Positions 3,495 to 46,292 of a DNA stretch of 64,000 nt are shown piece after piece. The notes under the pieces are model-generated. The model saw only the letters and a list, made by a program, of their open reading frames with translations. It did no database searches and was not told the DNA's origin. The stretch lies in IMG/VR virus record IMGVR_UViG_3300032893_000016, positions 34,147 through 98,146 of that record; one strand, given 5' to 3'. Both the position numbers and the translations under genes were made by a program. Origin of the DNA: a virus. Numbering within the stretch: the stretch's first letter is position 1; the number at the start of each line of letters is the position of its first letter.

Positions 3495-3877
3495 CAGCCG
3501 CCTTCTAAATCCGCCATCTTAATCGTTTCGAGTTCTGAATAGTACTTACGGGCGCTCTTCTCGGACTTGCGTGCCCCTTTGCGCAACTCCTCCAATGTAG
3601 GCAGCGTGCGCAATTTTAGCAAGTACGCATGACCGGTCTGGATGCCGATCTCTACGCGCTCAGACCACGGACGATGCCGGACCTTGCTCGGCTTGACGGG
3701 CTTCAGTGTCAGAACCATTGGATACCACTCTACGACGGATGCGACCTGTTTTCAGCTCTTCTGGCGAATAGGAGAATGAAGGCGTCGGGAATTGACCCCG
3801 GCTCGACACCGCGCCAGAGCCAAGGCGAGGGGCTTGGGCGGGCGTTTGGGGGATGGCTGCCAATGCAGTGCCGCGCT

Positions 3878-4246
3878 TCAGCCACCGTTCCTCCTGGGCC
3901 TTGCGCTCGCCCTTGCGGGCATAGTAGGCGCTATCATGGGCGCGTCTGTCTTCTTTATTTGCGTAGGGCATGATTTCAACCTTGGTAATTCGTCGGGCGG
4001 CAAGCCGCTCGCCTTTAAGCCATACCCAAGTACGTTAAGGCAAGTCTCTATATCGGTAAGTCGGATGGATCGTTCCGCGCGCCACCAGCGACCCAACATA
4101 TTCTTATTGACGCCGGCGTTATCGGCCAACCAATTGCGAGACCTGCCAATCGCCACCAAATGGAAGTGGATGAACCAAACAAGATGATGGGCCTTGGCAT
4201 GCGGCGCATGCTGGTCAACATTGGCAAGGCCATGCGGGCGGCTCAT
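3878..4246 (-). CDS. XRE-family helix-turn-helix protein
   Basis: SRNWLADNAGVNKNMLGRWWRAERSIRLTDIETCLNVLG; start inferred from ATGA overlap with upstream gene. Confidence 0.65.
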   Translation of the reverse strand: MSRPHGLANVDQHAPHAKAHHLVWFIHFHLVAIGRSRNWLADNAGVNKNMLGRWWRAERSIRLTDIETCLNVLGYGLKASGLPPDELPRLKSCPTQIKKTDAPMIAPTMPARASARPRRNGG

Positions 4247-4668
4247 CTGCGGCGTCGATTGAAACGGAAGTTGTTCAGATTGATAGGCACAGCCGCTGCG
4301 GCTTTCATTTCCGCCAGAAAGCTTATGCGCATCCGGCATTCAATGTCCTGCAAGGCGGTCAGTGCTTGCGCCTCATCACGATTGCAGCGCTGATAGTAAA
4401 TTTCCACCACCTGCATCGATGTCATACCGATCAGGCTGTTGGCACAGAACTCGCGCAACCGCTTGGGCAGGATTTCCATACACGCCATTTCCACCACGGC
4501 GCGGGCCTCACGACCATCAGCTTCCGCTAAGTTCTTGATATGTATCAGATACCTAATTACGTCGTCAGCGGACCGAAGCTCCTGCTTTGGTTCCGGGATG
4601 ACCCAGCTTTGTGCCAAAGCCTGCTGTGCCGGCGTAAGTTCCGCTTCCTTCTTTAACCGCGATACCAT
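4243..4668 (-). CDS. Hypothetical protein
   Basis: ORF in operon, stop overlaps next start; start at MVSRLKKE inferred. Confidence 0.45.
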   Translation of the reverse strand: MVSRLKKEAELTPAQQALAQSWVIPEPKQELRSADDVIRYLIHIKNLAEADGREARAVVEMACMEILPKRLREFCANSLIGMTSMQVVEIYYQRCNRDEAQALTALQDIECRMRISFLAEMKAAAAVPINLNNFRFNRRRR

Positions 4669-5221
4669 GCAAGTTCCTGTAGCGGCCATCCGCTGCATCC
4701 ATACCAAAACCGATAAGCCAACCGAAGTCATGCGGCACGGTAAGCGCGGCCATCATGCGCGGCTTGATCTGCCTGTAGAACTCATTGGCCGGATCGCCCT
4801 TATCGACGCCCATCATGTAGCGCACTTCTTTGGCCTTGGCCAGCCCAAGATAATATTCCATTTTCTGGATCGTCACGCCGCTGTCGAAGACATCATCCAC
4901 GACAAGCACATTGCGCCCGAACAGGTCAGGCAGCGAAAAAGACATCCAGGTTCTGTCAGTGGGGATCTCGAACCGACTAGGCGCGGCCTCAATGCGGTGA
5001 ATGTCAGCGTACCCAAGTTGCGGAAAGATGCGCCGATCAGCCAGGCGAGAGCAAACCTCTGACATCATGGGTATGCCACCTGACATGAGCCCAATGACCA
5101 TGTCGGGTATCCAACCCTTGCGCTGTCCAATATCGAGCACAGTGTTGAGTACCATTTGGTGGATGCGGCCTTCCATTTCAAAGCCGCTGAGCACTCCGAT
5201 ATAGCCTTCAGGCACGTACAT
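4565..5221 (-). CDS. Type I phosphoribosyltransferase, HPRT-like
   Basis: PRPP loop VLVVDDVFDSGVT; C-terminal WLIGFGMD..GRYRNL typical of Hpt. Confidence 0.8.
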   Translation of the reverse strand: MYVPEGYIGVLSGFEMEGRIHQMVLNTVLDIGQRKGWIPDMVIGLMSGGIPMMSEVCSRLADRRIFPQLGYADIHRIEAAPSRFEIPTDRTWMSFSLPDLFGRNVLVVDDVFDSGVTIQKMEYYLGLAKAKEVRYMMGVDKGDPANEFYRQIKPRMMAALTVPHDFGWLIGFGMDAADGRYRNLHGIAVKEGSGTYAGTAGFGTKLGHPGTKAGASVR

Positions 5222-6072
5222 TACTCGATCTCCGCGATCACGAAGCCGGGATGATGCGCCAGCTTCCGCCAATAGTTCATACGATCGAGCACGGACCGCT
5301 TGGCCACAGCAGAACCGTTGAGTAAGTAATTGCCGTTCTCCTGCCGCGTGCAGGCATCACCCTTCAGCTTCAGGTACTTGACCGCGTCGATCTTGAACTT
5401 GCTGTCGCCGTACAGCGGCGGGTGCGTATCGAGCTTGGTCGCATCGTACGTAAAATCGGAATTGGGCTGCGGAGGCATGCGCGCGGGCCTTGCCGGGCCT
5501 TGCTTCTGCTCTTCCTGCTTGATCAACTTGCCTTGCGACACGTCGGCCAATTCGGAAGGCACCAGCTCCGTTATGTTCTCTTTACCGGTGACGCGCCCTG
5601 TCACCGCGCCACCGACAGGTTTCCCTGCCGGGGCCGGGGGCTTGCCACCTTGAGCAGCCTTACGGCCGCCTCTAGGTTTCTTGTCCGATGTGCCGGCGTC
5701 GGCCATCGTCTGCCAATGGTCTTTAGGCAGACAGAAGATGATCTCGTGCTGATCGGCCTTCTCCATCTCGCACGCAAAGGCTTTGGCGTTGACGAGCGGC
5801 AAGCCGGTCACGTACGGAACAGTGATCTGACCACCACCCAGCTTCAGATCCTTGACGACGAACAGGGCCTCAGGGTGGTTGAAAGTGCTGAACCGCATCT
5901 TGCCCGCAAGAGCGTCAATCTGCACGTGACAGCGATTGAGGTTGTACTGCTTGCGAAGCGTATCGCTAATACCGATTGTGATGAACGCCGTACCATCCGC
6001 CTTGATGCTCATACCCGCTTTCAAGCGGGGAGCAACCTTGACCTGGATGGGGGACAAATCAATCCAGCCCAT
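5221..6072 (-). CDS. Hypothetical protein with central low-complexity linker
   Basis: 283-aa ORF coupled to the PRTase gene. Confidence 0.65.
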   Translation of the reverse strand: MGWIDLSPIQVKVAPRLKAGMSIKADGTAFITIGISDTLRKQYNLNRCHVQIDALAGKMRFSTFNHPEALFVVKDLKLGGGQITVPYVTGLPLVNAKAFACEMEKADQHEIIFCLPKDHWQTMADAGTSDKKPRGGRKAAQGGKPPAPAGKPVGGAVTGRVTGKENITELVPSELADVSQGKLIKQEEQKQGPARPARMPPQPNSDFTYDATKLDTHPPLYGDSKFKIDAVKYLKLKGDACTRQENGNYLLNGSAVAKRSVLDRMNYWRKLAHHPGFVIAEIE

Positions 6073-20632: not shown

Positions 20633-21553
20633 CTATCCGATCACGTTGGCACAGGCAAGGATAACCTGCCCAATACCATCACCCTTGTACATGACCTTGC
20701 CAAAGGCTTCGAGAACAGCAAGCGAGCGCGCGGCTTTTTTGGTGGTGTCGGCACCCAGCGCGACTTTCGTATGATAGCCGATCACAACCCGGCGTATACT
20801 TTCCGGGTCGAGGTCCTTCATCTTTTCAACCAGTGCCATGATCTGCTTGTAATTGGAACTCTGCAACAGCAGCCGGGCCAGCTCAAAAGCCTCCGGCGCA
20901 TTGGTCGCGGACTGCAGGAGCTCGGCTGCTTCTTCAACAGACCCAGCTTCCATGCAAATGTTCAGGTTCGACAGGGCCTGCCGGGGGCTGCCATTTGCCT
21001 CGTCGGCGCACAGCCCAATGATCTCCCCGCCGACCTTGTCGGTCAGGATATTTTCTTTGTCAGCAATGGTGCACAGGAAATTGTACAGCTCATCGCCCGT
21101 CAGGTCGCGCAAAGCGTACGAGGCAAAGCGGGTCTTGATGCTGGCCTTCAGCTTCGTCGGCGCTGTCGTACAGAAGAACCAATAAATCCACGGGGGCGGC
21201 TCTTCGAGCGATTTCAGCAAGGAATCCAGCGCTTGGCCGGACAAGCCTTGGCACTCATCAATAATGATGGCGCGCGAACCGGACAGCCTATAGTTCAGCG
21301 TGGAAGTGATCTTCCGCATTTCGTCGATACCGGTGTTCGACGCTGCGTCAATCTCAAGGATGCCTTCATCGGGAACCCCGAACGCGCGGGCAGTAATGCG
21401 GGCCAAGGTCGTCTTGCCTGTGCCGGCGTTGCCTGTGAACATGAACCCTTGGGCGGACTTCTTGGCCACGACGGCCTTGAGAGATTTGACCGCGGCGTCC
21501 TGCCCTACCACCTCATCAAAGGTCTTCGGACGATATTTCGTAATCAAGCTCAT
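20633..21553 (-). CDS. Clamp loader, DNA polymerase III gamma/tau-like AAA+ ATPase
   Basis: KYRPKTFDEVVGQ, GTGKTT, EIDAAS, IIIDEC, LLKSLEEPP. Confidence 0.92.
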   Translation of the reverse strand: MSLITKYRPKTFDEVVGQDAAVKSLKAVVAKKSAQGFMFTGNAGTGKTTLARITARAFGVPDEGILEIDAASNTGIDEMRKITSTLNYRLSGSRAIIIDECQGLSGQALDSLLKSLEEPPPWIYWFFCTTAPTKLKASIKTRFASYALRDLTGDELYNFLCTIADKENILTDKVGGEIIGLCADEANGSPRQALSNLNICMEAGSVEEAAELLQSATNAPEAFELARLLLQSSNYKQIMALVEKMKDLDPESIRRVVIGYHTKVALGADTTKKAARSLAVLEAFGKVMYKGDGIGQVILACANVIG

Positions 21554-24132
21554 GCGGCCAGCTTCCCCTTCCAGGTGTCGGACGCGTACTCGCCCGCCTT
21601 CTTAAGGTCATACCAACTCGGGCCTGCGGACATTTCCACCGTCAAAGGTACATTGACCCAATCGTAATCCGTGTACAGCATCTCGGTAACCACATCCTGC
21701 GCCCATTCATCCGCGCCCTTCTTCTTGCGGAAGAATGTCAAATCGTCATGGATGAACATATTGCACTGGTAATCAAGGCCGCGCTTGGACAGCCGCGTCG
21801 CCGCGCCCATGACGATGAAGGTCTCGCAAGCCTGAATGGGGCTGTTGATGACCTCGTTCATGGACATAGGCGCATGGCGGATCGTGCCATCCAGACTGAT
21901 GACGTATCCATTCTGCTTGTAGAACTTAATGGCGCGCTCCTGCCATTCCTTCACGCCTTCAAAGGTGTACCAGAACTCGTCATACAGCGGGCTGATGACC
22001 TTTTCGGGGATGTCAAGATTGTTGGCCACACTTTGCATGGCCGAGCCAAAGAACAGCGGGAACGTCCAGCCATTCTTTACCACATCGCGGAACTTGCGGA
22101 TCGGATCGTCTTCCAGGTGGAACTCGTCCATACGCCGCGGATATGCCTTGGCCAGCTTCTCGGTCCACTCCAAATGAATGTCATACCGATCCCAAAGCGC
22201 CTTGATGAACGAGCGATCCTGACTGGCCATCGCGATGATGCGCGCCTGAATCTGGCCGTAGTCGAACGCATAACAGTATTCATCCGAGCCGGGTCGTATC
22301 TGCTTGCGGACTTCCTTACCCTCAGCGTCGCGCTTGGGAAAGTTCTGCTCATTGGGGCCATCGGATGATGTGCGCCCCGTCTTGGTGAAGACCGTGTTCA
22401 AGGATGGATGCAGCAGCCCATCCTTCCAATAGTATGCGCCGCCCGGCCCCAGCTCCCGGATATAGGTCGACAGCATCTTCTCGACGCCGCGAAGGTGGAC
22501 AATCTTGTCAAGGCCGGGCAGGTCAATTTCGTTCAGCACGTCTTCATCGGTGGAGTATTTTTCGTTGCCACCGCTATCGGTCTTCCAGCCCTCCTTACAT
22601 TTGTAGACGTCCTTCAGGAGCTTTTCGACATCGTGGTTATTGGTGGGCTTGAACGGCCGCCCGATTACTCTCTTAAACTCTCGCGCAATTTCAGACTTGG
22701 CGATCTCGTCGTGCAGATCGCGTGCAATGTCTTCATATTTATGAAGCAGGTCTTCGTTCTCGTCCGGATCAATAGGCACGCCTTTGAGCTGCGTGAGGAC
22801 GGCTGTTGGAACGCGAGACATCCGCTCGTTGAAATGCTCTTCACGTTTTGCATCCCGTATAAGATCAAACTGTCGAACGCCAAGAAAGTAATGGTACCGA
22901 GTATCGAGCCCATTATAATGTAGAGTATCTTCCAAAGGCTCATTGAGCATGTCCTCCTTGTCCAGCGGGCTTAGAACTTTAAGGTCAAAGCCGAAGTGTT
23001 GGCGCACGAGGAAGTTCAGGGACAGCGGCCCCTGCCTACCCTTCTCGCCGACACGCTCATCGAGCACAGCGGCCTGCACCATCGTGCAAATCCATTCGCC
23101 GGCTCGCAGGATGCTGTGCCCGAACAGGTAGCCAACCCACTCCATTTCAAAGGCCGCATTGTGGACCATCTTGATGACCTTGGAGCACAAGAACGTCTCG
23201 AAGGCATCTCGTATCTTCTCAAACTGCGCTTTCGTCCAGTTCGCCCGCGGATGCTCATAAGGGAAGGCCAGCACCTTCTCGCCCGTGCCAACCGCAATCG
23301 TCAGAAGGCGGCCATCATTGTACGGCCGGACAGTTTCGGTTTCAAAGTCCATGCCGACTGCCCATTGCTCGGCAGCCCATTCAAGGTGTGCGACGATCGT
23401 ATCAACGTCCTCGTCCGTGCCACCCAGCACAATATCGACATTGATGTCGCGCTGGTCCACTTCGTGGTAGTACTGATTGACGTCGGCCCACTCGATCTTG
23501 TCCAGCTCTTTGAAGACGCGCCTTATGTCGAAGTCGAACGCGCGCTCATCCTCATTGTAGATGCCAGCCGCATCGTTCTGCCAATCCTTGCGCTTCTTAA
23601 GGAGCTCGGCCGGGCTGACCACCGGGTATAACCAGCACACATGGCCAGCAATGTTAACCACCGCCCGCCTGCCGCGCCAATCATAGATACGATCGTCGCC
23701 TACGGCCCATTTGAGCGCCGCCTGCCCCACGGCAAGAATGGCCTTGGGCTTGGCAGCGGCAATGTCGCGCTCCACGCTTGGCCTGCAACACTCGACCTCG
23801 TACTTGGCGTCGGTCAGCTTGTTACCGGGCGGGTGCGTGCGCACCACATTGTTGAAGCGGATGTCGCTTTTCCAGTCTTTGGGGATACGCCGGCGTAACA
23901 GCAGCCCCGCCTCCCCGGAGAAGTGGTCGTCCTGTTTATCATCGGTCTTGGACGGGAACTCACCCAGCACATAAAGGAGGGGCTCGGACGCCCCGCTTGG
24001 GGCCATGTGGGGGTGGGCGTTCTTAACCTTATCTAAAGGACAAGCTCTACATTCCAAGCGACGTAGCAATTCCGCGGAAGGTTCTCCCTTCTTGCCCTTG
24101 CCCTTGCCCGTGCCTGAGGCTAGGAAACCCAT
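21550..24132 (-). CDS. Family A DNA polymerase with N-terminal uracil-DNA-glycosylase-like domain and 3'-5' exonuclease
   Basis: CRACPL/GEFP/UDG4-like N-terminus; DFET and HNAAFE exonuclease motifs; TKTGRTSS; motifs A (DYGQIQAR), B (KNGWTFPLFFG), C (IHDD). Confidence 0.92.
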   Translation of the reverse strand: MGFLASGTGKGKGKKGEPSAELLRRLECRACPLDKVKNAHPHMAPSGASEPLLYVLGEFPSKTDDKQDDHFSGEAGLLLRRRIPKDWKSDIRFNNVVRTHPPGNKLTDAKYEVECCRPSVERDIAAAKPKAILAVGQAALKWAVGDDRIYDWRGRRAVVNIAGHVCWLYPVVSPAELLKKRKDWQNDAAGIYNEDERAFDFDIRRVFKELDKIEWADVNQYYHEVDQRDINVDIVLGGTDEDVDTIVAHLEWAAEQWAVGMDFETETVRPYNDGRLLTIAVGTGEKVLAFPYEHPRANWTKAQFEKIRDAFETFLCSKVIKMVHNAAFEMEWVGYLFGHSILRAGEWICTMVQAAVLDERVGEKGRQGPLSLNFLVRQHFGFDLKVLSPLDKEDMLNEPLEDTLHYNGLDTRYHYFLGVRQFDLIRDAKREEHFNERMSRVPTAVLTQLKGVPIDPDENEDLLHKYEDIARDLHDEIAKSEIAREFKRVIGRPFKPTNNHDVEKLLKDVYKCKEGWKTDSGGNEKYSTDEDVLNEIDLPGLDKIVHLRGVEKMLSTYIRELGPGGAYYWKDGLLHPSLNTVFTKTGRTSSDGPNEQNFPKRDAEGKEVRKQIRPGSDEYCYAFDYGQIQARIIAMASQDRSFIKALWDRYDIHLEWTEKLAKAYPRRMDEFHLEDDPIRKFRDVVKNGWTFPLFFGSAMQSVANNLDIPEKVISPLYDEFWYTFEGVKEWQERAIKFYKQNGYVISLDGTIRHAPMSMNEVINSPIQACETFIVMGAATRLSKRGLDYQCNMFIHDDLTFFRKKKGADEWAQDVVTEMLYTDYDWVNVPLTVEMSAGPSWYDLKKAGEYASDTWKGKLAA

Positions 24133-24576
24133 CTAACTGCCCTTCGCAAAGACCATACCCAAAGGATGGCGATGGCTGCCACCATAGTGGTGGCTCGACC
24201 ATGTTTGCGGCTGGAACTGAAAATCAATAGGAAGGCCGGTCTGTGCCCGCAAGCGTTCGGAGATTGCGACGGTTAGAAGCGTCCACTTCGGATCATGCTC
24301 CCAATGGCCACCCCGGCTTAGATCTTTGTACCCCGCATCAGGAAACTCCGCGATGAAGGCTTCATCCTTCATGATGAACCGAACGTCAACGTCACGCCAA
24401 TCAGGCCGGTGCAAGACAGACCCAACTAGGTAGCAGCCGAACCCATCAAAGGCCCGGTTGATCTGAATGCACGCCTGATCGAGTAGGAAATACGTTGGAG
24501 GACCAATGTGGTCAATTTTCTTGCGCCTAGGTGGTATGAGCGGGGGCTCACATGCGTACTTGCCGGGCTTGAACAT
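24133..24576 (-). CDS. Minimal nucleotidyltransferase-like protein
   Basis: YLVGS......WRDVDVR...PIDFQ, the Pol-beta superfamily GS-DxD pattern. Confidence 0.55.
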   Translation of the reverse strand: MFKPGKYACEPPLIPPRRKKIDHIGPPTYFLLDQACIQINRAFDGFGCYLVGSVLHRPDWRDVDVRFIMKDEAFIAEFPDAGYKDLSRGGHWEHDPKWTLLTVAISERLRAQTGLPIDFQFQPQTWSSHHYGGSHRHPLGMVFAKGS

Positions 24577-25700
24577 TAGACCAGCCGAGTTGACGCCAAA
24601 TAGGTGAACGTGCCAATCTGGAAGACGGCCGCCTTGTCGGTCAGCATCATCTTCATGGGATCATCCTTCTTTTTCTTATCGGCATCCTCATCGGGATTGC
24701 TGACGGGCAACACCCGCTTGATGATGGCGGGGTCAACGTTCACCCTGATATTGGGGTGCTTACCGAAGTCCATCCGATCGTCCAGCTCGCCGAGGCCGCT
24801 CTTGGTGTACAGGATGAGCTCCCCGTTCTTGACTTCCATTTCAAGGGTCTCGCCCGGGAGGCCGGCGAGCAGCACGAGCGCCCGCTCGATTGCATTGGGG
24901 AACTGGTCGGGCACTTTCTGGAAGCAGGGCTTGGCCAGCGTGTCATCCATGGTATCGAAGAATTTGTAGGGCTTGTTGACGTTGATCATGCGCCCGAAAA
25001 TGCGGACGCCGTCATCATTGATGGCGTTGACTTCGCTCTCGGAAACGAAAAGCTTGCCGCCCTTCTTGCAGAGCTTCCTGACCAGCTCGCAGAAGTCGGA
25101 GGGGATGCAAACGCGCTTCAGCTTGTAGCCGGAAGGCAGCTTGCCGCGCACTTCCGTAATGCTGGCGCTATCGGTCGTGTAGGCGTACAGATCATCCTTG
25201 TCGGGGATGAACGTGACGCCGAGCTGATCCTGAACCGAAGTGTCGCGGCCCGCCGACAGCATGACCGTTTCCAGCATGACAAGAAAATCATTGCCAATCG
25301 TCCGGGTGGGCTTGCCAGTGACTTCGGGCTGATCCCACACCGAGGCACTCAAGGGGAGCAGCCCGGCCTCCAGCTTGGCACCAGCGGCCTTCATCCGCAT
25401 CAGCGCCCCGTCCTCGCCCTCGACCTCTTCAAAGCTGACCGTGTCGGCCCCGCTGTGGGAAAGGAAGCCGGTGAGCAGCGCCCCATTCATGCCGCCCTTG
25501 AAAGGCGACTTGAAAGGTACCGTGATGCCGATCACATCATTGAAGGCCATCAGCGTGTCGCCGTTAAACCAGACGCACATCAGCGCCTCCAGCGGGCTCT
25601 TGGCCGCTACCGCGGGCGCGACCGTTTCAAGTGCCGCCAGCAAGTCCTTCCGGGGAAGTGTCTTGCCATCATTCGAAGTTGCTTTGCCGCCTCTGGCCAT
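24576..25700 (-). CDS. DNA polymerase III beta-like sliding clamp
   Basis: About 374 aa; LLAALETVAPAV..K...L, QLGV, YTTDS patterns; next to polymerase and clamp loader. Confidence 0.75.
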   Translation of the reverse strand: MARGGKATSNDGKTLPRKDLLAALETVAPAVAAKSPLEALMCVWFNGDTLMAFNDVIGITVPFKSPFKGGMNGALLTGFLSHSGADTVSFEEVEGEDGALMRMKAAGAKLEAGLLPLSASVWDQPEVTGKPTRTIGNDFLVMLETVMLSAGRDTSVQDQLGVTFIPDKDDLYAYTTDSASITEVRGKLPSGYKLKRVCIPSDFCELVRKLCKKGGKLFVSESEVNAINDDGVRIFGRMINVNKPYKFFDTMDDTLAKPCFQKVPDQFPNAIERALVLLAGLPGETLEMEVKNGELILYTKSGLGELDDRMDFGKHPNIRVNVDPAIIKRVLPVSNPDEDADKKKKDDPMKMMLTDKAAVFQIGTFTYLASTRLV

Positions 25701-25896
25701 CATCAAAACCCTTGCGTTGCTTTTTAGGCATACGCGCGAGCTTTTCGGGCCTGCGGTCAGCGGGAATGTCCAATGTACTCTTGACGGGGCTGTGCATATA
25801 GAAGTACGACAGAAGCCAAGCGTTGCCTCCGACACGACGAAGCAGCGGGCACCAAGTCTTCTCACCACGCATGGGAATGGCGTACACTACTCGCAC
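25669..25896 (-). CDS. Small paralogue 3 (LLSY motif)
   Basis: MRVVYA...WLLSYFYM...KKQRKGFDDG. Confidence 0.65.
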   Translation of the reverse strand: MRVVYAIPMRGEKTWCPLLRRVGGNAWLLSYFYMHSPVKSTLDIPADRRPEKLARMPKKQRKGFDDGQRRQSNFE

Positions 25897-26138
25897 GAGT
25901 CCTCCGTTTGCTTGGCGTGTGCAAGGATGGCCTTCACGCGACGTTTATCGTGGGTTGTGTTGCCCCATGTCCCGTTGAACTTCTTGGAGGGCGGGCGGAT
26001 GCCGGTGGCGGAAATGGCCGCCAGCCATTCAGGCTTCCATTCGTGGATGATATAGTGGTACGAATAAAGGCGCGGGCAATCCATTAGCGTCAGGATGCGC
26101 GAGCACCAATCATCGTTCCCAGCGTACAGGATGCGCAT
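25887..26138 (-). CDS. Small paralogue 2 (LYSY motif)
   Basis: MRILYAG...RLYSYHYI...KKFNG. Confidence 0.65.
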   Translation of the reverse strand: MRILYAGNDDWCSRILTLMDCPRLYSYHYIIHEWKPEWLAAISATGIRPPSKKFNGTWGNTTHDKRRVKAILAHAKQTEDSCE

Positions 26139-26377
26139 TACTCAACCTGTCGGGCAGCCGCAAGAACGGCCAGCCTCCGCCGCCGCATGTACGATCCATT
26201 GTCAAAGCCGCGCCGTTTCTTGCCCGACACCTTCTTTTCACCATGCAGGTAATCCTTGAGGTCGGCCTTCTCGGTCACCATGAAATAGTAGGACAGCAGC
26301 CGCGGTAGATCGCCCAGCGCGTTCAGCACTTGGCGTTGATACTCCGCGGTGGGCCAAGTTGCGTACACAAGTTTCAA
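26138..26377 (-). CDS. Small paralogue 1 (LLSY motif)
   Basis: MKLVYA...RLLSYYFM...KKRRGFDNG. Confidence 0.65.
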   Translation of the reverse strand: MKLVYATWPTAEYQRQVLNALGDLPRLLSYYFMVTEKADLKDYLHGEKKVSGKKRRGFDNGSYMRRRRLAVLAAARQVE

Positions 26378-26381
26378 AAGA

Positions 26382-26624
26382 TTACTCGCATTTCAGGAAC
26401 ACCGATGCCAGATAACGGACCTCGGCAAACGGGAACAAAAGTCGCTGCCAATTCCTAGCCTGATTCTCGGAGAAGCAGAACACAGGCGACCCCTTAAAGA
26501 AGATGATACCCATGATGGGGTGAACCAGCCAGTACTTTTCCTTGATGTGAAGCACATGGCCTTCCGACGCAAACTGCGCATCGGGCAACGCCTTGTAAGA
26601 AACTCTCTGATCGTCAGCTTCCAT
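26382..26624 (-). CDS. Hypothetical protein
   Basis: 80-aa ORF inside the modification operon. Confidence 0.55.
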   Translation of the reverse strand: MEADDQRVSYKALPDAQFASEGHVLHIKEKYWLVHPIMGIIFFKGSPVFCFSENQARNWQRLLFPFAEVRYLASVFLKCE

Positions 26625-27462
26625 GGGAAAGCTTCAGCCGGTGGCGGAACACATCTACGCCGGCGTGCTCCTCGAACTTCTTCATAAAGTAGACAATGGC
26701 GCGGGCACGAGCTTCATAATCGTGCGCGCAATCCAGCACCGTAACCCCCACCTCGTTTTCCAGCCAGTTGGATATCATGGCGCGTACCGACGGGCCCATC
26801 AAGAGGAAATGGTCGGAAGGGGTGCCCTTGTCACGATCGGTGGCGCTGATGGTGTGCTTGAGAGGCGCCTCCTTGTAATTGGGCTTTCCGTTCTTGAACT
26901 TGGGGATCAGGATTGATCCGTACGCGGCCGTCTGCGCCCATGACGTTGCGTCGCAGGTCGTCCAAGGGTAGCGGGCCATCAGAGGGAAGCTGCTCATAGC
27001 AAAGCCGTGGGTCTTGACCAGCGGCTTGCCCTTGTGATCGGTCAGATAGGTGAAGCAGGTATCCAGCCAACGCCGGGCCTCAGATGCGCCACACAGATTG
27101 GTCGCCGGGGAAAGGCCGATGTAGGGCTCTCTGTCCTGCAACATGCGCTCCAACCAGAACCAGCGCTCTCCGCGGTGGAACACAGGAATGGGGGAAAGCC
27201 CCGCCTTTTTCATCTTCTGCAGGTTCTGATAAGAGGCGCGGGCACCGGCTTCCGCATCGTCCGCGGTGCGCTTCTTATCCTTCTCGCCGGGAATCACATC
27301 CAGATTGACATAGGTATCAATGTACTGCAGGTTGTCTTTGATGTACTTTATGTAATCGTTCAGGTTGATCTCAGTCTTCTTCGTGAACGCGCTGAAAGCC
27401 CCTGAATCTAACATAATAAAGACTTTTTCCTTTTTGGGCTCTTCGAGCCTAACGCGTGTCAT
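26614..27462 (-). CDS. TGT-fold DNA transglycosylase, DpdA-like (7-deazaguanine insertion)
   Basis: MLDSGAFS, NLDVIP, PIPVFH.GE, HGFA, PWTTCDATSW; clustered with queC, folE, queD. Confidence 0.75.
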   Translation of the reverse strand: MTRVRLEEPKKEKVFIMLDSGAFSAFTKKTEINLNDYIKYIKDNLQYIDTYVNLDVIPGEKDKKRTADDAEAGARASYQNLQKMKKAGLSPIPVFHRGERWFWLERMLQDREPYIGLSPATNLCGASEARRWLDTCFTYLTDHKGKPLVKTHGFAMSSFPLMARYPWTTCDATSWAQTAAYGSILIPKFKNGKPNYKEAPLKHTISATDRDKGTPSDHFLLMGPSVRAMISNWLENEVGVTVLDCAHDYEARARAIVYFMKKFEEHAGVDVFRHRLKLSHGS

Positions 27463-27907
27463 CAGATGCGTAGCTCCGAATATGGAGGCAGGGCACGTTC
27501 AACTCTTGGTACACCTTAATGACTTCGTGCATATCGTCAAAGGCCATCTCAATGAACCAGCCTTCTCTCCGCACCTTATGGACCATCCCCCGCTTAACCT
27601 CGGCCGTCGTTGTGCCCCAGTCGCCATTGGCGCGAGCCAAGATGCGGCTGCCATCAATCGGCACGTCATGCTTGTACAGCCAGTCCTGCATTTCAGGGAT
27701 GGACCCTTCATGCTTGCCGGTAAACAGAAACAACGGATGAACCTTGGCAAGATTGCGCGCCAGCTTCACCATCTGGTAAAGCGGCGGATCACGGTAGAAC
27801 TTCTCGTCCCACTCTTTCCACTCTTTCGCCTTGGCGTGGTGAATGCGATGGCTAGGGTCGGAAAGCGTGCCCTCCATGTCGAACACGTAGCAGGACGGTT
27901 TACCCAT
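27449..27907 (-). CDS. HAD-family phosphatase (polynucleotide kinase 3'-phosphatase-like)
   Basis: FDMEGTL, FTGK, K, AFDD motifs; motif I reads DxE rather than DxD. Confidence 0.75.
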   Translation of the reverse strand: MGKPSCYVFDMEGTLSDPSHRIHHAKAKEWKEWDEKFYRDPPLYQMVKLARNLAKVHPLFLFTGKHEGSIPEMQDWLYKHDVPIDGSRILARANGDWGTTTAEVKRGMVHKVRREGWFIEMAFDDMHEVIKVYQELNVPCLHIRSYASDDTR

Positions 27908-28665
27908 TACAAGTCAGCCCAAAGCTTTCGATGCTTTACAATTACGTACGGAACAATCTCCGCCTTGCGGTTTCCATCGTAATGAGTACCATGCTTCATT
28001 TCGGAAAGGATGGCAAGGTTGGCTTCAACCGAGAGCGGATCAACCTCGTAGGCCTCCGGGATGCCAAGCTGGCCAAAGACACCCCAGCGCCGGAAGCATG
28101 AAATGCAGTGACCGCAAGGCGTCGGCGTGTTGCTGAGGCACGAGTTCGTGTTATGGATTTCCTCCACCGACACGCCACGCTGCAACAAATACTCAACGAT
28201 CGACACCTTGTTCCAACCGCGGGCGGCCAGCGGAAACATGACCTCCAGGTTGGGCTTCATCGTCGTGTAGCTGAGGACCGTAGTCATCATATGACGGAAC
28301 GTGTTATTCTTATCAACCGCCTTGGCGTGGGTTTCACCCGCCAACGCCCCAATCCACAGCTCATCGGGCAAGGTCATGCAAGCCGCAAGCGCCGCCAGCG
28401 CCATGTTGCGACCCGGAATGTAAATATCGCCGGCGAGGCCCATGGTCTTGATCCCATCCTTGGTCTTGCCCAGCCAGTCGACGCGTCGGATATCAGTTTC
28501 GGGCGGGAGGGACCTGATCTCTTTCTCCAAGTAGGGCTGGCCAATGTCGAAGAAGATTGGATGAACTACGACCGGCTCAGCGCCAATGGGGATGTACCCT
28601 TTGCAAAGGTAATACATGGCCAAGCTATCGAGGCCACCCGAGTAAAGGATTGTCACCTTGGTCAT
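27907..28665 (-). CDS. queC: 7-cyano-7-deazaguanine synthase-like
   Basis: PP-loop SGGLDS, IPGRN, zinc motif SC.....CGHCISC. Confidence 0.85.
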   Translation of the reverse strand: MTKVTILYSGGLDSLAMYYLCKGYIPIGAEPVVVHPIFFDIGQPYLEKEIRSLPPETDIRRVDWLGKTKDGIKTMGLAGDIYIPGRNMALAALAACMTLPDELWIGALAGETHAKAVDKNNTFRHMMTTVLSYTTMKPNLEVMFPLAARGWNKVSIVEYLLQRGVSVEEIHNTNSCLSNTPTPCGHCISCFRRWGVFGQLGIPEAYEVDPLSVEANLAILSEMKHGTHYDGNRKAEIVPYVIVKHRKLWADL

Positions 28666-29237
28666 TTGTTGGCCTCCGCCGCCAGCGCCAGAAACTCCGA
28701 GCGAGCCTTGGCATCCTGGAACATTGCACCCCGAAAAGCTGTCGTGGTCGTCCACGTTCCTGCAATGCAGACACCCCGGCTTTCCATGCACCGGTGTCGA
28801 CAGCGCACAAGCACGCCCGCGCCCTTGGCGTCAAGATGCTTGAACAAAGCGTCGACTATCTGATTGGTCATCCGCTCCTGAACTTGCAAACGGTGGGCAA
28901 AAATATCCACCAGCCGCTTCAGTTTGGAAAGCCCCACGATCCCCTTCTCGCCGGGGATGTAGGCAATATGCGCCACCCCAAAGAACGGGGCCATATGATG
29001 CTCGCAGAAGCTATTGACCGGCAGGTTGGCCTGGAAGATCATTTCATCGTAATGATGACCGGCCTCTTCGAAGACCTTGAGGACGTCCTCCGGCTTCTGA
29101 TTGTAGCCGCTAAACCAATGCTTGAAGGCTTTAGCCACACGTACCGGCGTATCCTTTAAGCCCTCACGGTCGAAGTTGCCGGGCTCAATCTGCTCCAGCA
29201 TTGCCCTTACGGCCGCCTGAATTTCAACTTCACGCAC
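28662..29237 (-). CDS. folE: GTP cyclohydrolase I
   Basis: REGLKDTPVRV, SFCEHH, GLSKL, RLQVQE, HRCMESRG. Confidence 0.95.
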   Translation of the reverse strand: MREVEIQAAVRAMLEQIEPGNFDREGLKDTPVRVAKAFKHWFSGYNQKPEDVLKVFEEAGHHYDEMIFQANLPVNSFCEHHMAPFFGVAHIAYIPGEKGIVGLSKLKRLVDIFAHRLQVQERMTNQIVDALFKHLDAKGAGVLVRCRHRCMESRGVCIAGTWTTTTAFRGAMFQDAKARSEFLALAAEANK

Positions 29238-29826
29238 GGATAAACAGGCCCCAAATCTCAGCGTGCCCGGCACGCAACTCAACTGTCTCTACCGGACATA
29301 CGGAACTGAACCCATTAAGCTGCATAAAGTGTACTAACCAGCGCTCATCCCAAATCGTATAGTGGTACTCCCAAAAGGCCCATTCAGACTTCCGATGGGG
29401 CACGGCAATGAAGACAAGGCCATCGTTGGGGTCCAGCATGCTCCGCGCCGCCGCAATGGCAGCATAGGGATTGTAGACGTGCTCCAAAGAATGATTCAGC
29501 ACGACGAGGTCGAACTTCTCATCCTTGAACAAATGGCGCAGGTTGGGATCGGTCATATCCCAGCGCCGGATATCCAGGTTGAACGGATTGATACTGAAAT
29601 GAGTGTCGACGCCCGCCACCCGCCGCACAATGCCCGGGTTCATGGACCGAAGCTGGTTCAGGCAGGTGCCGTAGTCGCACCCCAACTCCAGCACGGACTT
29701 GGGCAGCCCAAAATTGTGCTCGAACAGACGATGTGCAAGCCAGTCCATGCCCTGCCGGGCATAGCTCTCAATCTCCCGCGACCGACCATCATCGTCATGG
29801 TTGTGGTGCGCTGTATGCTCCGGCAT
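29230..29826 (-). CDS. Class I SAM-dependent methyltransferase
   Basis: VLELGCDYG motif I, FDLVVLNHSLEHV. Confidence 0.8.
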   Translation of the reverse strand: MPEHTAHHNHDDDGRSREIESYARQGMDWLAHRLFEHNFGLPKSVLELGCDYGTCLNQLRSMNPGIVRRVAGVDTHFSINPFNLDIRRWDMTDPNLRHLFKDEKFDLVVLNHSLEHVYNPYAAIAAARSMLDPNDGLVFIAVPHRKSEWAFWEYHYTIWDERWLVHFMQLNGFSSVCPVETVELRAGHAEIWGLFIRA

Positions 29827-29853
29827 GATTCCTCCTAGAAGGGCTGGACTAGC

Positions 29854-30519
29854 CTACTCGCCGTTGACGGCCTTGGCGATGTCCTTGGGGTTGACGTCGT
29901 TATCAGCCATGAACACCGCGACGTGCACGAACGCACCGCGGGCCTGCCGCAGCGTACCGACCGGCATGTCGATACCCTTGGCCTTGACCTTGTTGGCCAG
30001 CGCTTCGATGCTGTCGCCGGGCTTGGCCGCGATCAGCTTCCAGACGGCCTTGATCTTGCCGTCCTTCTTGGGCGGAGCGCCCTTCTTCTTCGCGGGAGCC
30101 TTCTCAGCGGGGGCCTTGTTGGCAGCGGGCTTCTTGCCTTTGCCCTTGCTTGCCGCCTGCTTCTTTTTTCCAGATGCCACGGTACTATCTTCCTTCTTGT
30201 CATCGCCGGCACCATCACCGGCATCAGGCGCAGCCGCTCCGGTACCATTGGTCGACTTGTCTTCGGACTCACTATCGTCCGAAGCCGCATCCGGGAACGG
30301 CAGGAACGGCTTCTTGTCCCGAAAGGGGATGATAAGCCCCGTCTCGGCAAATTGCTGTCCAGCAGATCCAAGGCTGGCCCAATCATCATCCGACGCTGCG
30401 GACAACCCCTTGGCTAACCTACCCAGGTACTCATCGCGGTCTTCACCCTTCTTGGGCGTGACCTTGGCCACCTCTTGGAACTGTTTTTCCAATGGTGACA
30501 CGGCCTTCTCTGTTGCCAT
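29854..30519 (-). CDS. Lys/Ala-rich putative DNA-binding protein
   Basis: Histone-like KKPAANKAPAEKAPAKKK linker; N-terminal domain shared with 41540-41926. Confidence 0.6.
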   Translation of the reverse strand: MATEKAVSPLEKQFQEVAKVTPKKGEDRDEYLGRLAKGLSAASDDDWASLGSAGQQFAETGLIIPFRDKKPFLPFPDAASDDSESEDKSTNGTGAAAPDAGDGAGDDKKEDSTVASGKKKQAASKGKGKKPAANKAPAEKAPAKKKGAPPKKDGKIKAVWKLIAAKPGDSIEALANKVKAKGIDMPVGTLRQARGAFVHVAVFMADNDVNPKDIAKAVNGE

Positions 30520-30611
30520 TCTGGTAATCCTATGTTGAAACAGCGGCGGGTTGGCTGCCGTCGCTTATATCATACCTACGTGATTTAGTTCCTATTGGCA
30601 AGTACGCACCA

Positions 30612-31163
30612 TTAGGTACCAACGGCCGGGTACGCGGCGGCACAATTGGGAGTTTCCCACACAATGATCTGCCGGAGCCTTGCTTTTGTTGCGCTTCTCG
30701 CCTTAACACGCGGCTCCAACAAAAAATACCAATGTTTGGCAAGATTCTCAGCGGTGGGCGTAAAGTCAACTATGTACATCTTCAGATCACCCAGCCCCTT
30801 CGCCTCCACGGTCGATACTGCATCAGGCTCGCCACTAAACTTACGGTTGATCAACCATTTAACTGCATTATCAATCAGCTCAGGAATTGCACCACCAGCA
30901 ATCAGCATCGGCCGAAGCAAAGGATCATCGTACTTGAGAATGGTGCCATGATCACAAGGCTTGTCAATCTTGTCCATCATTTCCTCTTTGAGGAAACCGA
31001 AGTCAAGGAGCATGCCGGTCTGCTCGCCGGTGTCATGCAGCTCTTGGCCTTCACAAACAGCCTGTATCGTGTAACGGTGGCCATGCGGGTTCCGGCACTT
31101 GCTGCCATGATCCTGAATGCGATGACCGGCGTCGATGCCGATCTCTCGCGTGATGGTGAACAT
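30612..31163 (-). CDS. queD: 6-carboxytetrahydropterin synthase
   Basis: AGHR...CRNPHGHRY, DFGFLK, DH, PTAENLA, VWET. Confidence 0.93.
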   Translation of the reverse strand: MFTITREIGIDAGHRIQDHGSKCRNPHGHRYTIQAVCEGQELHDTGEQTGMLLDFGFLKEEMMDKIDKPCDHGTILKYDDPLLRPMLIAGGAIPELIDNAVKWLINRKFSGEPDAVSTVEAKGLGDLKMYIVDFTPTAENLAKHWYFLLEPRVKARSATKARLRQIIVWETPNCAAAYPAVGT

Positions 31164-33181: not shown

Positions 33182-34476
33182 TTACCAGCGGCAGGTGGCG
33201 AACGTTTCCACTTGGTCGATGTCAGCGGCGGGGATGGCGGTCTGATCCCCATACTCGTTAACGATCACGACAAATGCGCCCTCGTACTTTACTGCCAGAT
33301 CATAGCTACCGCCAGCGCGGGGACGGTGCTTGAACTCTCGCACCGTCCCATCCTTCATTGTGACCGTAACGTCCACTACTGCGCCTGTGCCTTGCCACCA
33401 AGGTCGACGACCAGCGGCTTGATGTTAAGGTCGAACGGCTGAGTGGAATAAAGGTACTTACCATTCCACTGGACATAGGCATCGCTGGTCGTGTGACAAT
33501 AGATGTACGGATCAGACGGACCATAAGTGCCATCCTCGCCGGGGCCTTCCACCCTCTCCCACGATCCACCCAAGTTCATGCCTTCATTATTCTCATCATG
33601 ACCGTAAGCCCTGATCCACTCGACACGCGCCGACTGTGTCAGCCGCTTTGAGCCCGACGTGCACTTGCCCTTCACCGCATAATACTGGATCGGACGGCCG
33701 TCATCGGAAAGAAAGACGATGTAGCCGACAAGGCCCGGCTTGCCCATCGTGGTACGCTTGAAGGCTATGTTGTCCGCCTCGTTGTTCTCAGTCGTGGCGG
33801 CGTCAACCTGCTTGGCCAGATCCAAGCTTTGACGTTCAGCATTGGTCGGCGGTGCCGAACTGGCGCAGCCGTCGCTCTCATGTCCCTTACTCGCACCCAT
33901 CAGCAGGATGGTACCGGCGAGCAGGAGGGGTATGGCAAAAATCCTACGCATGTCTGTGTTGCTCCTTCTTTGGTGCCGCTACTTAGCGGCGGGCGGATCA
34001 CACCAATTAGGCGGGTATGACGAAGGCAGCGGTGTCCATGCCGACGTCGACGCCGGAAGCCAACGCTCCGGGTTTCTGAAAAAGCCTGCATCAAGCCGAG
34101 CAGCGCGGGAGTTATACTGGCCCACCCAATCGAGGCAGGTTTGCATGACGCCCGTCAATTCGGTCTGCCGGGCCATCGCGCGATCCTTATCGTTGACCTC
34201 GGCCCACCTCTCTAGCGCTGCGGCGTTCTTGATCTTATTGGGGAACAAGTCAAGAGAGGCGCTGGTATCGTGGAACCATTTGTACTGGGTCAGCATGTTG
34301 TCGGCGTCGATGATCTTGTTGACCACCCGCGCACCTTGCTGGACAGGATTGGTAATGGTGTGCAGAAAGCAGCCCACCACGCCGACAGCCGTCAAGCTGC
34401 AAAGCAAAAGAACCAAGACACGTGTCAAGGTCCAGAACGGCCTCTTCTCGAAGCCTTCTTCATAATCGTAGCCCAT
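33182..34476 (-). other. Three hypothetical CDSs (33182-33376; 33376-33951 with signal peptide; 33979-34476 with TM segment)
   Basis: Consecutive ORFs with hydrophobic N-termini. Confidence 0.6.
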
Positions 34477-45446: not shown

Positions 45447-46292
45447 TCATTCCTGTCCCATAAACAGGTGCGTCTGGCACGAGAACCTGAATCCGCACTC
45501 CATGCAAATATCGGAGGCGTGCTTATAGTTGCGCATCGTGGCCTCGCGGTCGATCAGCCCGCTGTCCCACATGTTGGGAACCTCGCCAAAGCGCACCGCC
45601 CGCTTGTACACCGTCAGCGGGGAAATGTAAACCTTACCGCGCACTTCCTCCTGCGTGGCCCACGCCGGCACAGAAAAGTAGGGGCTGTCCGTGTCCGCGC
45701 TGACGACAAACTTGAAAGCATCAACCCGGTTGATGTAGCCGACACGCGGCTCCCGGTACACGCCTTTCGTGACCTTGGGGCTGACCACCAGCTTGACCGT
45801 TGAACGCAAGGGGTAGGGGCCATCGATGAACGGCCGCTGGATGTTGTCGCCATTGCTCTCGATCTGAACCGTGAGGCCACCGCCCGCCTCCTGCAACGCC
45901 CGGCACAGATGGGGCAGCATGGGCTGAAGCATGGGCTCCCCGCCCGTGATCACCACGAGGCTGTAGGGATAGGCCAAGACCTTGACCGATGAGAAACGAT
46001 CGTCCTCAATCGTCTTTTCGGGGGCGCACTCACGCACCGCCTTGACAACCTGCTCCACCGTCATGGACATTGAGTTCTCCAGCTCAAAGCTGGTATCGCA
46101 GAACTCGCAACCCATGCCCTCTTTCTGCCCGCGGTTGCAACCCGCCAGCCGGACAAAGACGGCCGGATGCCCGGCGTAAGGCCCCTCACCCTGAATTGTG
46201 TAGAAAATCTTTGTAACGCGCAGCAAAGGGCTCAGCCCTTCATAGTCGGCAGGACCCGCGTTCTTGTCCTGATGCTGGATGTAATGAACCAA
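45447..46292 (-). CDS. queE: 7-carboxy-7-deazaguanine synthase (radical SAM)
   Basis: FYTIQGEG, FVRLAGCN...CEFCDT, ITGGEP, IESNG, VSPK, QTH. Confidence 0.93.
   Translation of the reverse strand: MVHYIQHQDKNAGPADYEGLSPLLRVTKIFYTIQGEGPYAGHPAVFVRLAGCNRGQKEGMGCEFCDTSFELENSMSMTVEQVVKAVRECAPEKTIEDDRFSSVKVLAYPYSLVVITGGEPMLQPMLPHLCRALQEAGGGLTVQIESNGDNIQRPFIDGPYPLRSTVKLVVSPKVTKGVYREPRVGYINRVDAFKFVVSADTDSPYFSVPAWATQEEVRGKVYISPLTVYKRAVRFGEVPNMWDSGLIDREATMRNYKHASDICMECGFRFSCQTHLFMGQE

Follow-up and report, generated by a model that had tools for sequence, protein, structure and literature searches.

Phages can defeat restriction with DpdA enzymes, which insert 7-deazaguanines into the phage DNA. Described phage forms (e.g. 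Vid5 gp34 and the CAjan/9g-type enzymes of PHROG 887) are single chains in which the beta1-alpha1-beta2 segment of the barrel is fused at the N terminus. Here we analyse a DpdA-like locus in the virus record IMGVR_UViG_3300032893_000016 of IMG/VR (98,146 bp, estimated completeness 76%), within a window that comprises the last 64 kb of that record (64,000 nucleotides, positions 34,147 to 98,146). This locus belongs to the same family (phrog_887; tblastn 31–39% identity), has the same DSG and beta8 aspartate motifs and likewise carries FolE, QueD and QueC beside replication genes. In contrast to the single-chain enzymes, the beta1-alpha1-beta2 segment is missing from its 282-aa DpdA-like protein (hereafter the core) and appears to be encoded three times, as small genes downstream of it (hereafter mini1, mini2 and mini3). 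We regard a split-barrel DpdA, with mini1 as the principal partner of the core, as the probable reading of this arrangement from sequence comparison and structural models.

The bacterial DpdA of the Dpd restriction-modification system of S. Montevideo is a TIM-barrel DNA guanine transglycosylase, the activity predicted for the core, with Asp95, Asp130, His181 and Asp256 in its active site (PMC10164549). Its general acid/base aspartate, in a DSG motif, follows beta3 and its nucleophilic aspartate is on beta8; Asp130 and His181 serve in base recognition; an insertion at beta1/alpha1 adds to the positively charged DNA-binding surface, and an insertion at beta2/alpha2 flanks the active site with a proposed role in sequence recognition, which implicates the loops after both strands in DNA contact (PMC10164549). 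Unlike the core, it is one chain of ∼400 aa that has a Zn site and a large insertion at beta8/alpha8 and acts together with the DpdB ATPase; the 282-aa core sequence contains no CxCxxC...H cluster of Zn-site cysteines.

That the wider family can act as a heteromer is illustrated by the eukaryotic QTRT1/QTRT2 pair. TGT subunits, unlike the window proteins, are each a complete barrel with an extra N-terminal beta-sheet lid, and their substrate is tRNA. We know of no TGT whose barrel is divided over two polypeptides. The split archaeosine TGT of some archaea is divided between the catalytic barrel and the C-terminal RNA-binding domains, not within the barrel, and engineered split or half TIM barrels (HisF) are laboratory constructs; to our knowledge, neither the archaeosine enzyme nor the half-barrel systems have tandem alternative copies of the small piece. 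A full-text literature search that included the main phage deazaguanine papers returned no split, truncated or permuted DpdA and no accessory small subunit. The enzyme family and the pathway are known; as far as we found, a split inside the barrel, permuted forms and multiple copies of the small subunit had not been described for them.

The core protein and the small modules

The four genes in question are the following:

26614..27462, minus strand: DpdA/TGT-like core, 282 aa (phrog_887 match and fold model)
26138..26377, minus strand: mini1, 79 aa, TTG start (module hidden Markov model (HMM), orthologues and complex model)
25887..26138, minus strand: mini2, 83 aa, ATG start (BLASTP match to mini1 and module HMM)
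25669..25896, minus strand: mini3, 75 aa, GTG start (BLASTP match to mini1 and match in a related locus, L097)

The core matches phrog_887 (queuine tRNA-ribosyltransferase) with an E value of 8.5e-44, although only from profile position 58 on. Its LDSGAFS motif begins at residue 18, close to the start as the sequence-only reading had noticed, and the open frame reaches just 12 codons upstream of the ATG before a stop, which rules out a hidden N-terminal extension. An AlphaFold2 (AF2) model of the core has high confidence (mean predicted local distance difference test (pLDDT) 91.3) and contains six barrel strands (beta3–beta8). By contrast, the N-fused homologue P0016, whose core is 55% identical, is modelled as an eight-stranded beta/alpha barrel (pLDDT 90.3) with E2–6, H11–22 and E27–31 as its first elements. 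Bacterial TGT is the best structural match for both: VIA-align places residues 9–269 of the core model on residues 92–365 of the Z. mobilis TGT chain 5jt7 (Z 14.5, root mean square deviation (rmsd) 3.2, 219 aligned residues) and residues 1–308 of the P0016 model on residues 40–365 (Z 20.2, rmsd 3.0, 262 aligned). Because the core matches this chain only from residue 92 and P0016 from residue 40, the core lacks a counterpart of TGT residues 40–91 (i.e. beta1-alpha1-beta2 and the following link). Nor does its C terminus hold a substitute, since the beta-meander at 183–204 is also present in the N-fused model. The earlier proposal that the large gene encodes an incomplete barrel thus agrees with the models.

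Candidate active-site residues are conserved. Across 34 homologues, neither D19 (in LDSGAFS) nor D171 (in TTCD) varies, and the model places them on its first and last barrel strands; we infer, from the motifs and the order of the strands, that they are equivalent to Asp95 and Asp256 of bacterial DpdA. D55 and H96 are also invariant and stand at the ends of the next two strands after that of D19, as judged from the homologue alignment and the model, and would by strand order be the equivalents of Asp130 and His181. Sequence searches of the core and of the Vid5 DpdA against PDB chains gave nothing significant, and the relation of the core to TGT is apparent only at the level of the modelled fold.

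The three small open reading frames (ORFs), described by the sequence-only reading as adjacent 75–83-aa frames with shared motifs, are present on the minus strand at the positions given above. Each starts with M[KR][LIV][VL]YA, has [LY]SY[YHF][FY][MI] some 20 residues further on and ends in a basic KK..G tail, in which mini1 and mini3 also share GFD.G. Pairwise BLASTP comparisons (mini1–mini2, E 3e-8; mini1–mini3, 2e-5; mini2–mini3, 1e-3) indicate that they are paralogues. They also look translated, as far as the DNA sequence can tell: the mini1 stop overlaps the mini2 start (TAATG); the GTG of mini3 is preceded at 4 nt by the Shine-Dalgarno sequence GGAGG; the TTG start of mini1 yields the family-typical MKLVYA; and codon-position GC is gene-like in the proposed frames, as in the neighbouring genes (e.g. 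a third-position GC of 0.76 in mini2).

Profile comparisons connect these ORFs with the missing segment. An HMM built solely from the fused N termini of other proteins ranks them 1st, 2nd and 6th of the 1243 ORFs in the window. After iteration on 160 related loci (164 hits and zero reversed-sequence decoys at 10 bits or more), the module HMM recovers mini1 and mini2 in the window with E values of 2.4e-8 and 5e-4; mini3, the most divergent of the three, is tied to the family only via its paralogues and its L097 orthologue. A hhalign comparison of the three-ORF profile with 42 DpdAs places residues 1–37 on template columns 2–35 (E 1.1e-4, probability 56%). The homology to the N-terminal strands of DpdA that had been suspected is therefore borne out by these HMM ranks and by hhalign. 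Furthermore, mini1 aligns over 72 residues, tail included, with residues 300–375 of the C-fused DpdA P0273 (E 3e-4). It is of the commonest free subtype (‘ATW’), defined by A-T-W after the first strand, Q-G..L-T at the start of the helix and Y-x-K-T-G after the second strand, and C-fused modules are likewise of this subtype. Residues 50–75 of mini1 (the basic tail with G-F-D-N-G and a following helix with R-R-L-A-V-L-A) align with the extreme C terminus of P0273 and recur in mini2; this tail is a conserved element and is placed without confidence in the complex model described next.

Modelling of the core with mini1 gave an ipSAE of 0.87, compared to 0.00 for the best of three controls. This mark is reached by 58 of 80 solved complexes and by 2 of 110 mismatched pairs, counts that are approximate here given that our own alignments were used. 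The runs shared at least 71% of their contacts, with a partner pLDDT of at least 63. In the model, mini1 residues 25–31 (the RLLSYY strand) lie parallel to and in register with core residues 15–20 (the strand ending in the DSG aspartate), and mini1 residues 3–4 contact core residues 169–170 (the TTCD strand with D171). Mini1 would thus sit between the last and first strands of the core, and the modelled strand order (beta8-beta1-beta2-beta3) is that of the fused homologue. The eight-strand barrel is complete solely in this modelled complex; the core chain alone has six strands. Together with fusions in both orientations (see below), the model favours the earlier idea that the strands can be supplied in trans.

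Searches of annotated collections returned little. Pfam and PHROGs contain nothing meaningful for the three small ORFs or for six representative free modules; tblastn with mini1 and the consensus-like P0127 found no match in 50,697 phage records; and a word-based scan of 5.8 billion proteins, made with the profile of the three ORFs, recovered the window's own proteins only. An exhaustive profile search of 1.84 billion representatives yielded 537 proteins under a cut-off of E<=1e-3, mostly free proteins of 47–110 aa; 103 proteins pass E<=1e-10. Among the best 150 of these matches, 142 are of 110 aa or less and nearly all align from residue 1. By these sequence matches, the module family is large and under selection, and its several hundred members, small viral proteins, are so far unannotated and without a Pfam or PHROG entry.

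Arrangements of the module in related loci

The sequence-only reading had stated that many phage TGT-like proteins begin with a characteristic N terminus ahead of FLDSGAFS, and this holds: such a piece is fused ahead of LDSGAFS in the DpdA of Pantoea phage Vid5 and in ∼30 metagenomic relatives. The Vid5 protein has ∼55 extra N-terminal residues with a strand-helix-strand pattern. Most of the metagenomic homologues that are 50–57% identical to the core begin at LDSGAFS, and ∼10 have the piece fused in frame. Across the related loci, the module is found in three forms: (i) N-fused; (ii) C-fused, in 350–450-aa proteins that begin directly at LDSGAFS; and (iii) free, as ORFs of 40–110 aa. The C-fused form is, on sequence, an apparent circular permutation.

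Almost all free modules (111 of 114) are encoded on the strand of the core; 61 lie no more than 500 bp downstream of it and 33 more within 3 kb. A free module is nearby in none of 19 C-fused cores, compared to 40 of 77 other cores (Fisher p 1e-5), in a cross-tabulation that undercounts fusions because the HMM fails to detect the ‘WPGG’ N-fused subtype as well as several modules that can be recognised by eye. Free modules are encoded downstream of the core, and the fused modules closest to them are C-terminal. The fission of a circularly permuted DpdA, and not the loss of an N terminus, is therefore the best reading of the split, which corrects the earlier one.

The locus most informative for the window is L097, the closest relative with long flanks. 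Its core is 49% identical, its synteny is the same and its core is followed by three modules in the same order, which are the reciprocal best matches of mini1, mini2 and mini3 (BLASTP 7e-7, 5e-4 and 7e-6). A second or third module is present in L017 and L083 too; in both of these loci and in L097, the gene right behind the core encodes an orthologue that aligns with mini1. The retention of the triplet in L097 suggests that the triplication is old and argues for a function. Many other loci contain two to four free modules of distinct subtypes, which differ mainly in the loop after strand 1 and in the segment after strand 2. The 98-kb record itself contains one core and three modules.

Several further arrangements were observed. 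Five viral contigs (L138, L115, L055, L074 and L041) have two or three adjacent DpdA cores in a mixture of bare, N-fused and C-fused forms, with several free modules. In each of three small metagenomic proteins (P0129, P0138 and P0173), two modules that differ in subtype are fused in tandem, which raises the possibility of module–module association. In the metagenomic protein P0167 (218 aa), a free module (residues 1–57) is joined to a homing endonuclease of the HNH/NUMOD4 type, a hint that mobile endonucleases occur at module boundaries and may have helped to split or shuffle these genes.

Edwardsiella phage vB_EpM_ZHS (OM621816, L001) has a DpdA and candidate modules at 3863–4777, 5283–5567 and 5542–5721. 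Its DpdA probably starts upstream of the annotated position (L001:3977): the frame remains open as far back as an ATG at L001:3863, immediately behind the FolE stop, and the stretch from 3863 reads like a ‘WPGG’-type fused module. ZHS_62 matches the module HMM along its entire length with 7.9 bits, and ZHS_63 is module-like by eye only. We had also considered a resemblance of the modules to N termini of nucleoside 2-deoxyribosyltransferases (ZHS_61 has the same position in that phage) and dropped this candidate once DpdAs with fused modules were found.

A probable split barrel and its alternatives

In the proposed mechanism, the phage DpdA would be a naturally split TIM barrel. The 282-aa gene would provide beta3–beta8 with D19, D55, H96 and D171, and a separate small protein would provide beta1-alpha1-beta2, inserted between beta8 and beta3 so as to close the barrel. 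Mini1 would be the principal partner, because it is an orthologue of the module that is C-fused in the circularly permuted DpdAs of other viruses. Mini2 and mini3 are old, conserved paralogues with the same two strands, set apart by the beta1/alpha1 loop and by the stretch that follows beta2; they would most likely fit the same site and so form alternative holoenzymes. The basic tail of the module would probably contact DNA. On this basis we infer that the proteins bind in the cell, that the enzyme is active only as a complex and that mini2 and mini3 act as alternates to mini1.

Several observations weigh against this mechanism or limit it. The complex modelling covered the core and mini1 as a pair, each with our own alignment. 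The model may also draw on the TGT barrel that the predictor has learned; it shows pieces compatible with a whole barrel, and binding in the cell is another matter. With the general module HMM, mini3 falls below significance (E 8, rank 11 of 1243). An 80-aa ORF separates the core from mini1 here and not in the relatives. Free modules are nearby in 7 of 14 N-fused cores (e.g. L084, L068, L063 and L133); these barrels should already be complete, so the free modules there would displace the fused one or do something else. Finally, a few bare cores with ∼10-kb flanks (e.g. L106, L041 and L067) have no module detectable by the HMM, which misses divergent ones.

How the three modules are used is less certain than the split itself. 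The module would supply the beta1/alpha1 and beta2/alpha2 loops and a Lys/Arg-rich tail, which makes specificity-changing subunits physically reasonable by analogy with bacterial DpdA. Nevertheless, that the three modules are interchangeable and alter specificity is a tentative proposal only. The fuller version, in which one core combines with any of three exchangeable beta1-alpha1-beta2 subunits, each with other loops and another basic tail at the DNA-binding face, so that a single phage has several holoenzymes for different motifs or 7-deazaguanine bases, is in our view possible but doubtful. If true, exchangeable subunits would be a modular way to widen protection against restriction, and the split of a circularly permuted barrel would have made the exchange of subunits possible. 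According to published work, CAjan modifies two motifs and iggy one.

A competing and clearly less likely explanation is that mini1 alone completes the barrel, while mini2 and mini3 do another job (e.g. they regulate or block assembly, bind DNA alone or act as decoys against a host TGT or Dpd-family enzyme). Only mini1 is of the subtype that is C-fused and that directly follows the core in relatives, the family profile gives mini2 and mini3 far weaker scores, and the free modules beside presumably complete N-fused cores also fit such a role. On the other hand, mini2 and mini3 retain both strand motifs of the modelled interface, are translationally coupled to mini1 and are kept in the same order in L097, and no target besides the core is evident in the 98-kb record.

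The split-barrel reading must also be set against the case that the 282-aa protein is active alone as a six-stranded partial barrel, and that the small proteins are unrelated accessory factors that resemble N-terminal strands. Partial barrels exist in other enzyme families, such as the radical SAM enzymes, and the bare cores without a detectable module nearby would be explained. This case is nevertheless improbable, because the small ORFs are homologous to fused modules, fusions occur at either end of the core, C-fusion and free modules are mutually exclusive, and the complex model closes the barrel in the register of the fused homologue. That the small ORFs are functionless, decaying duplicates of the 5' part of a dpdA gene would suit their short, tandem, divergent and unannotated nature but is hardly credible, given that hundreds of free-standing relatives begin exactly at the first strand, that subtype-specific loop motifs are kept across distant loci, that codon-position GC is gene-like and mini3 has a Shine-Dalgarno sequence, and that L097 retains all three orthologues.

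If the split-barrel reading is correct, it would suggest a physical basis for the target motifs of part of the DpdA family. The DNA-facing rim strands and loops would be a separable unit that is fused at either end, free or multiplied. It would also be a rare natural TIM barrel divided inside the barrel, of which fused, permuted and split forms can be compared, and would be relevant to how barrels evolved out of smaller beta-alpha units as well as to split-enzyme design. As a practical matter, DpdA genes of ∼260–290 aa would be unsuited to expression alone, and this could bear on the reported failure to reconstitute some phage DpdAs in E. coli.

The gene neighbourhood

All genes around the core lie on the minus strand in a single tightly packed run. 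They are ordered as QueD, a Lys-rich protein, a SAM methyltransferase, FolE, QueC, a HAD/PNKP-type phosphatase and the TGT-like core, followed by an 80-aa ORF, the three small ORFs, a sliding clamp, a 147-aa ORF and a UDG-fused polymerase. The features other than the core and the modules are:

30612-31163, minus strand: QueD (Pfam/PHROG match)
27449..31163, minus strand: upstream context in the same run, with the phosphatase, QueC, FolE, the methyltransferase, the Lys-rich protein and QueD (Pfam and PHROG matches)
26382..26624, minus strand: 80-aa orphan ORF between the core and mini1 (gene-like codon-position GC)
21550..25703, minus strand: downstream context, with the sliding clamp (probable start 25703), the 147-aa ORF and the UDG-fused family A DNA polymerase

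The clamp matches phrog_947 (E 1.9e-25) and the polymerase the Pfam families DNA_pol_A and UDG. The cluster is a set of phage 7-deazaguanine DNA-modification genes beside replication genes, and its order is matched in Edwardsiella phage ZHS and in the metagenomic locus L097. From this context, with FolE, QueD and QueC in the same run and a QueE candidate elsewhere, the core would exchange DNA guanine for a 7-deazaguanine.

The 80-aa ORF overlaps the end of the core by 11 nt and ends 4 nt ahead of the mini1 start, within a gap of 237 nt between the core and mini1. It has no relative among the 160 related loci and does not occur at this position in L097 and L017, where a module directly follows the core; its membership in the system is uncertain. 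A joining of the core, this ORF and mini1 by read-through or a simple frameshift was rejected, because the frames differ and 4 nt separate the ORF stop from the mini1 start.

At the other end, the end of mini3 overlaps the clamp start. The clamp ORF has a long upstream extension over mini3, which we reject as a real gene on two grounds: the match to clamps sets in at residue 70, and the alignment with the L097 clamp begins at the internal start MMARGG.

The QueC ORF as listed (27907-28791, minus strand) encodes 294 aa from a GTG and overlaps FolE by 130 nt. Resemblance to QueC sets in at the internal MTKVTILYSGG, which puts the probable true start near 28665. The sole radical-SAM match of the viral record (∼45840-46142, minus strand; 29.6 bits) lies in a 285-aa open frame, a QueE candidate that stands 15 kb off the FolE-QueC-QueD run. 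L097 is without the methyltransferase and the phosphatase at the corresponding positions. In the window, the presence of a class I SAM methyltransferase (29230-29826, minus strand) and a PNKP-type HAD phosphatase (27449-27907, minus strand) inside the deazaguanine run suggests a further-modified base or a nucleotide-level step.

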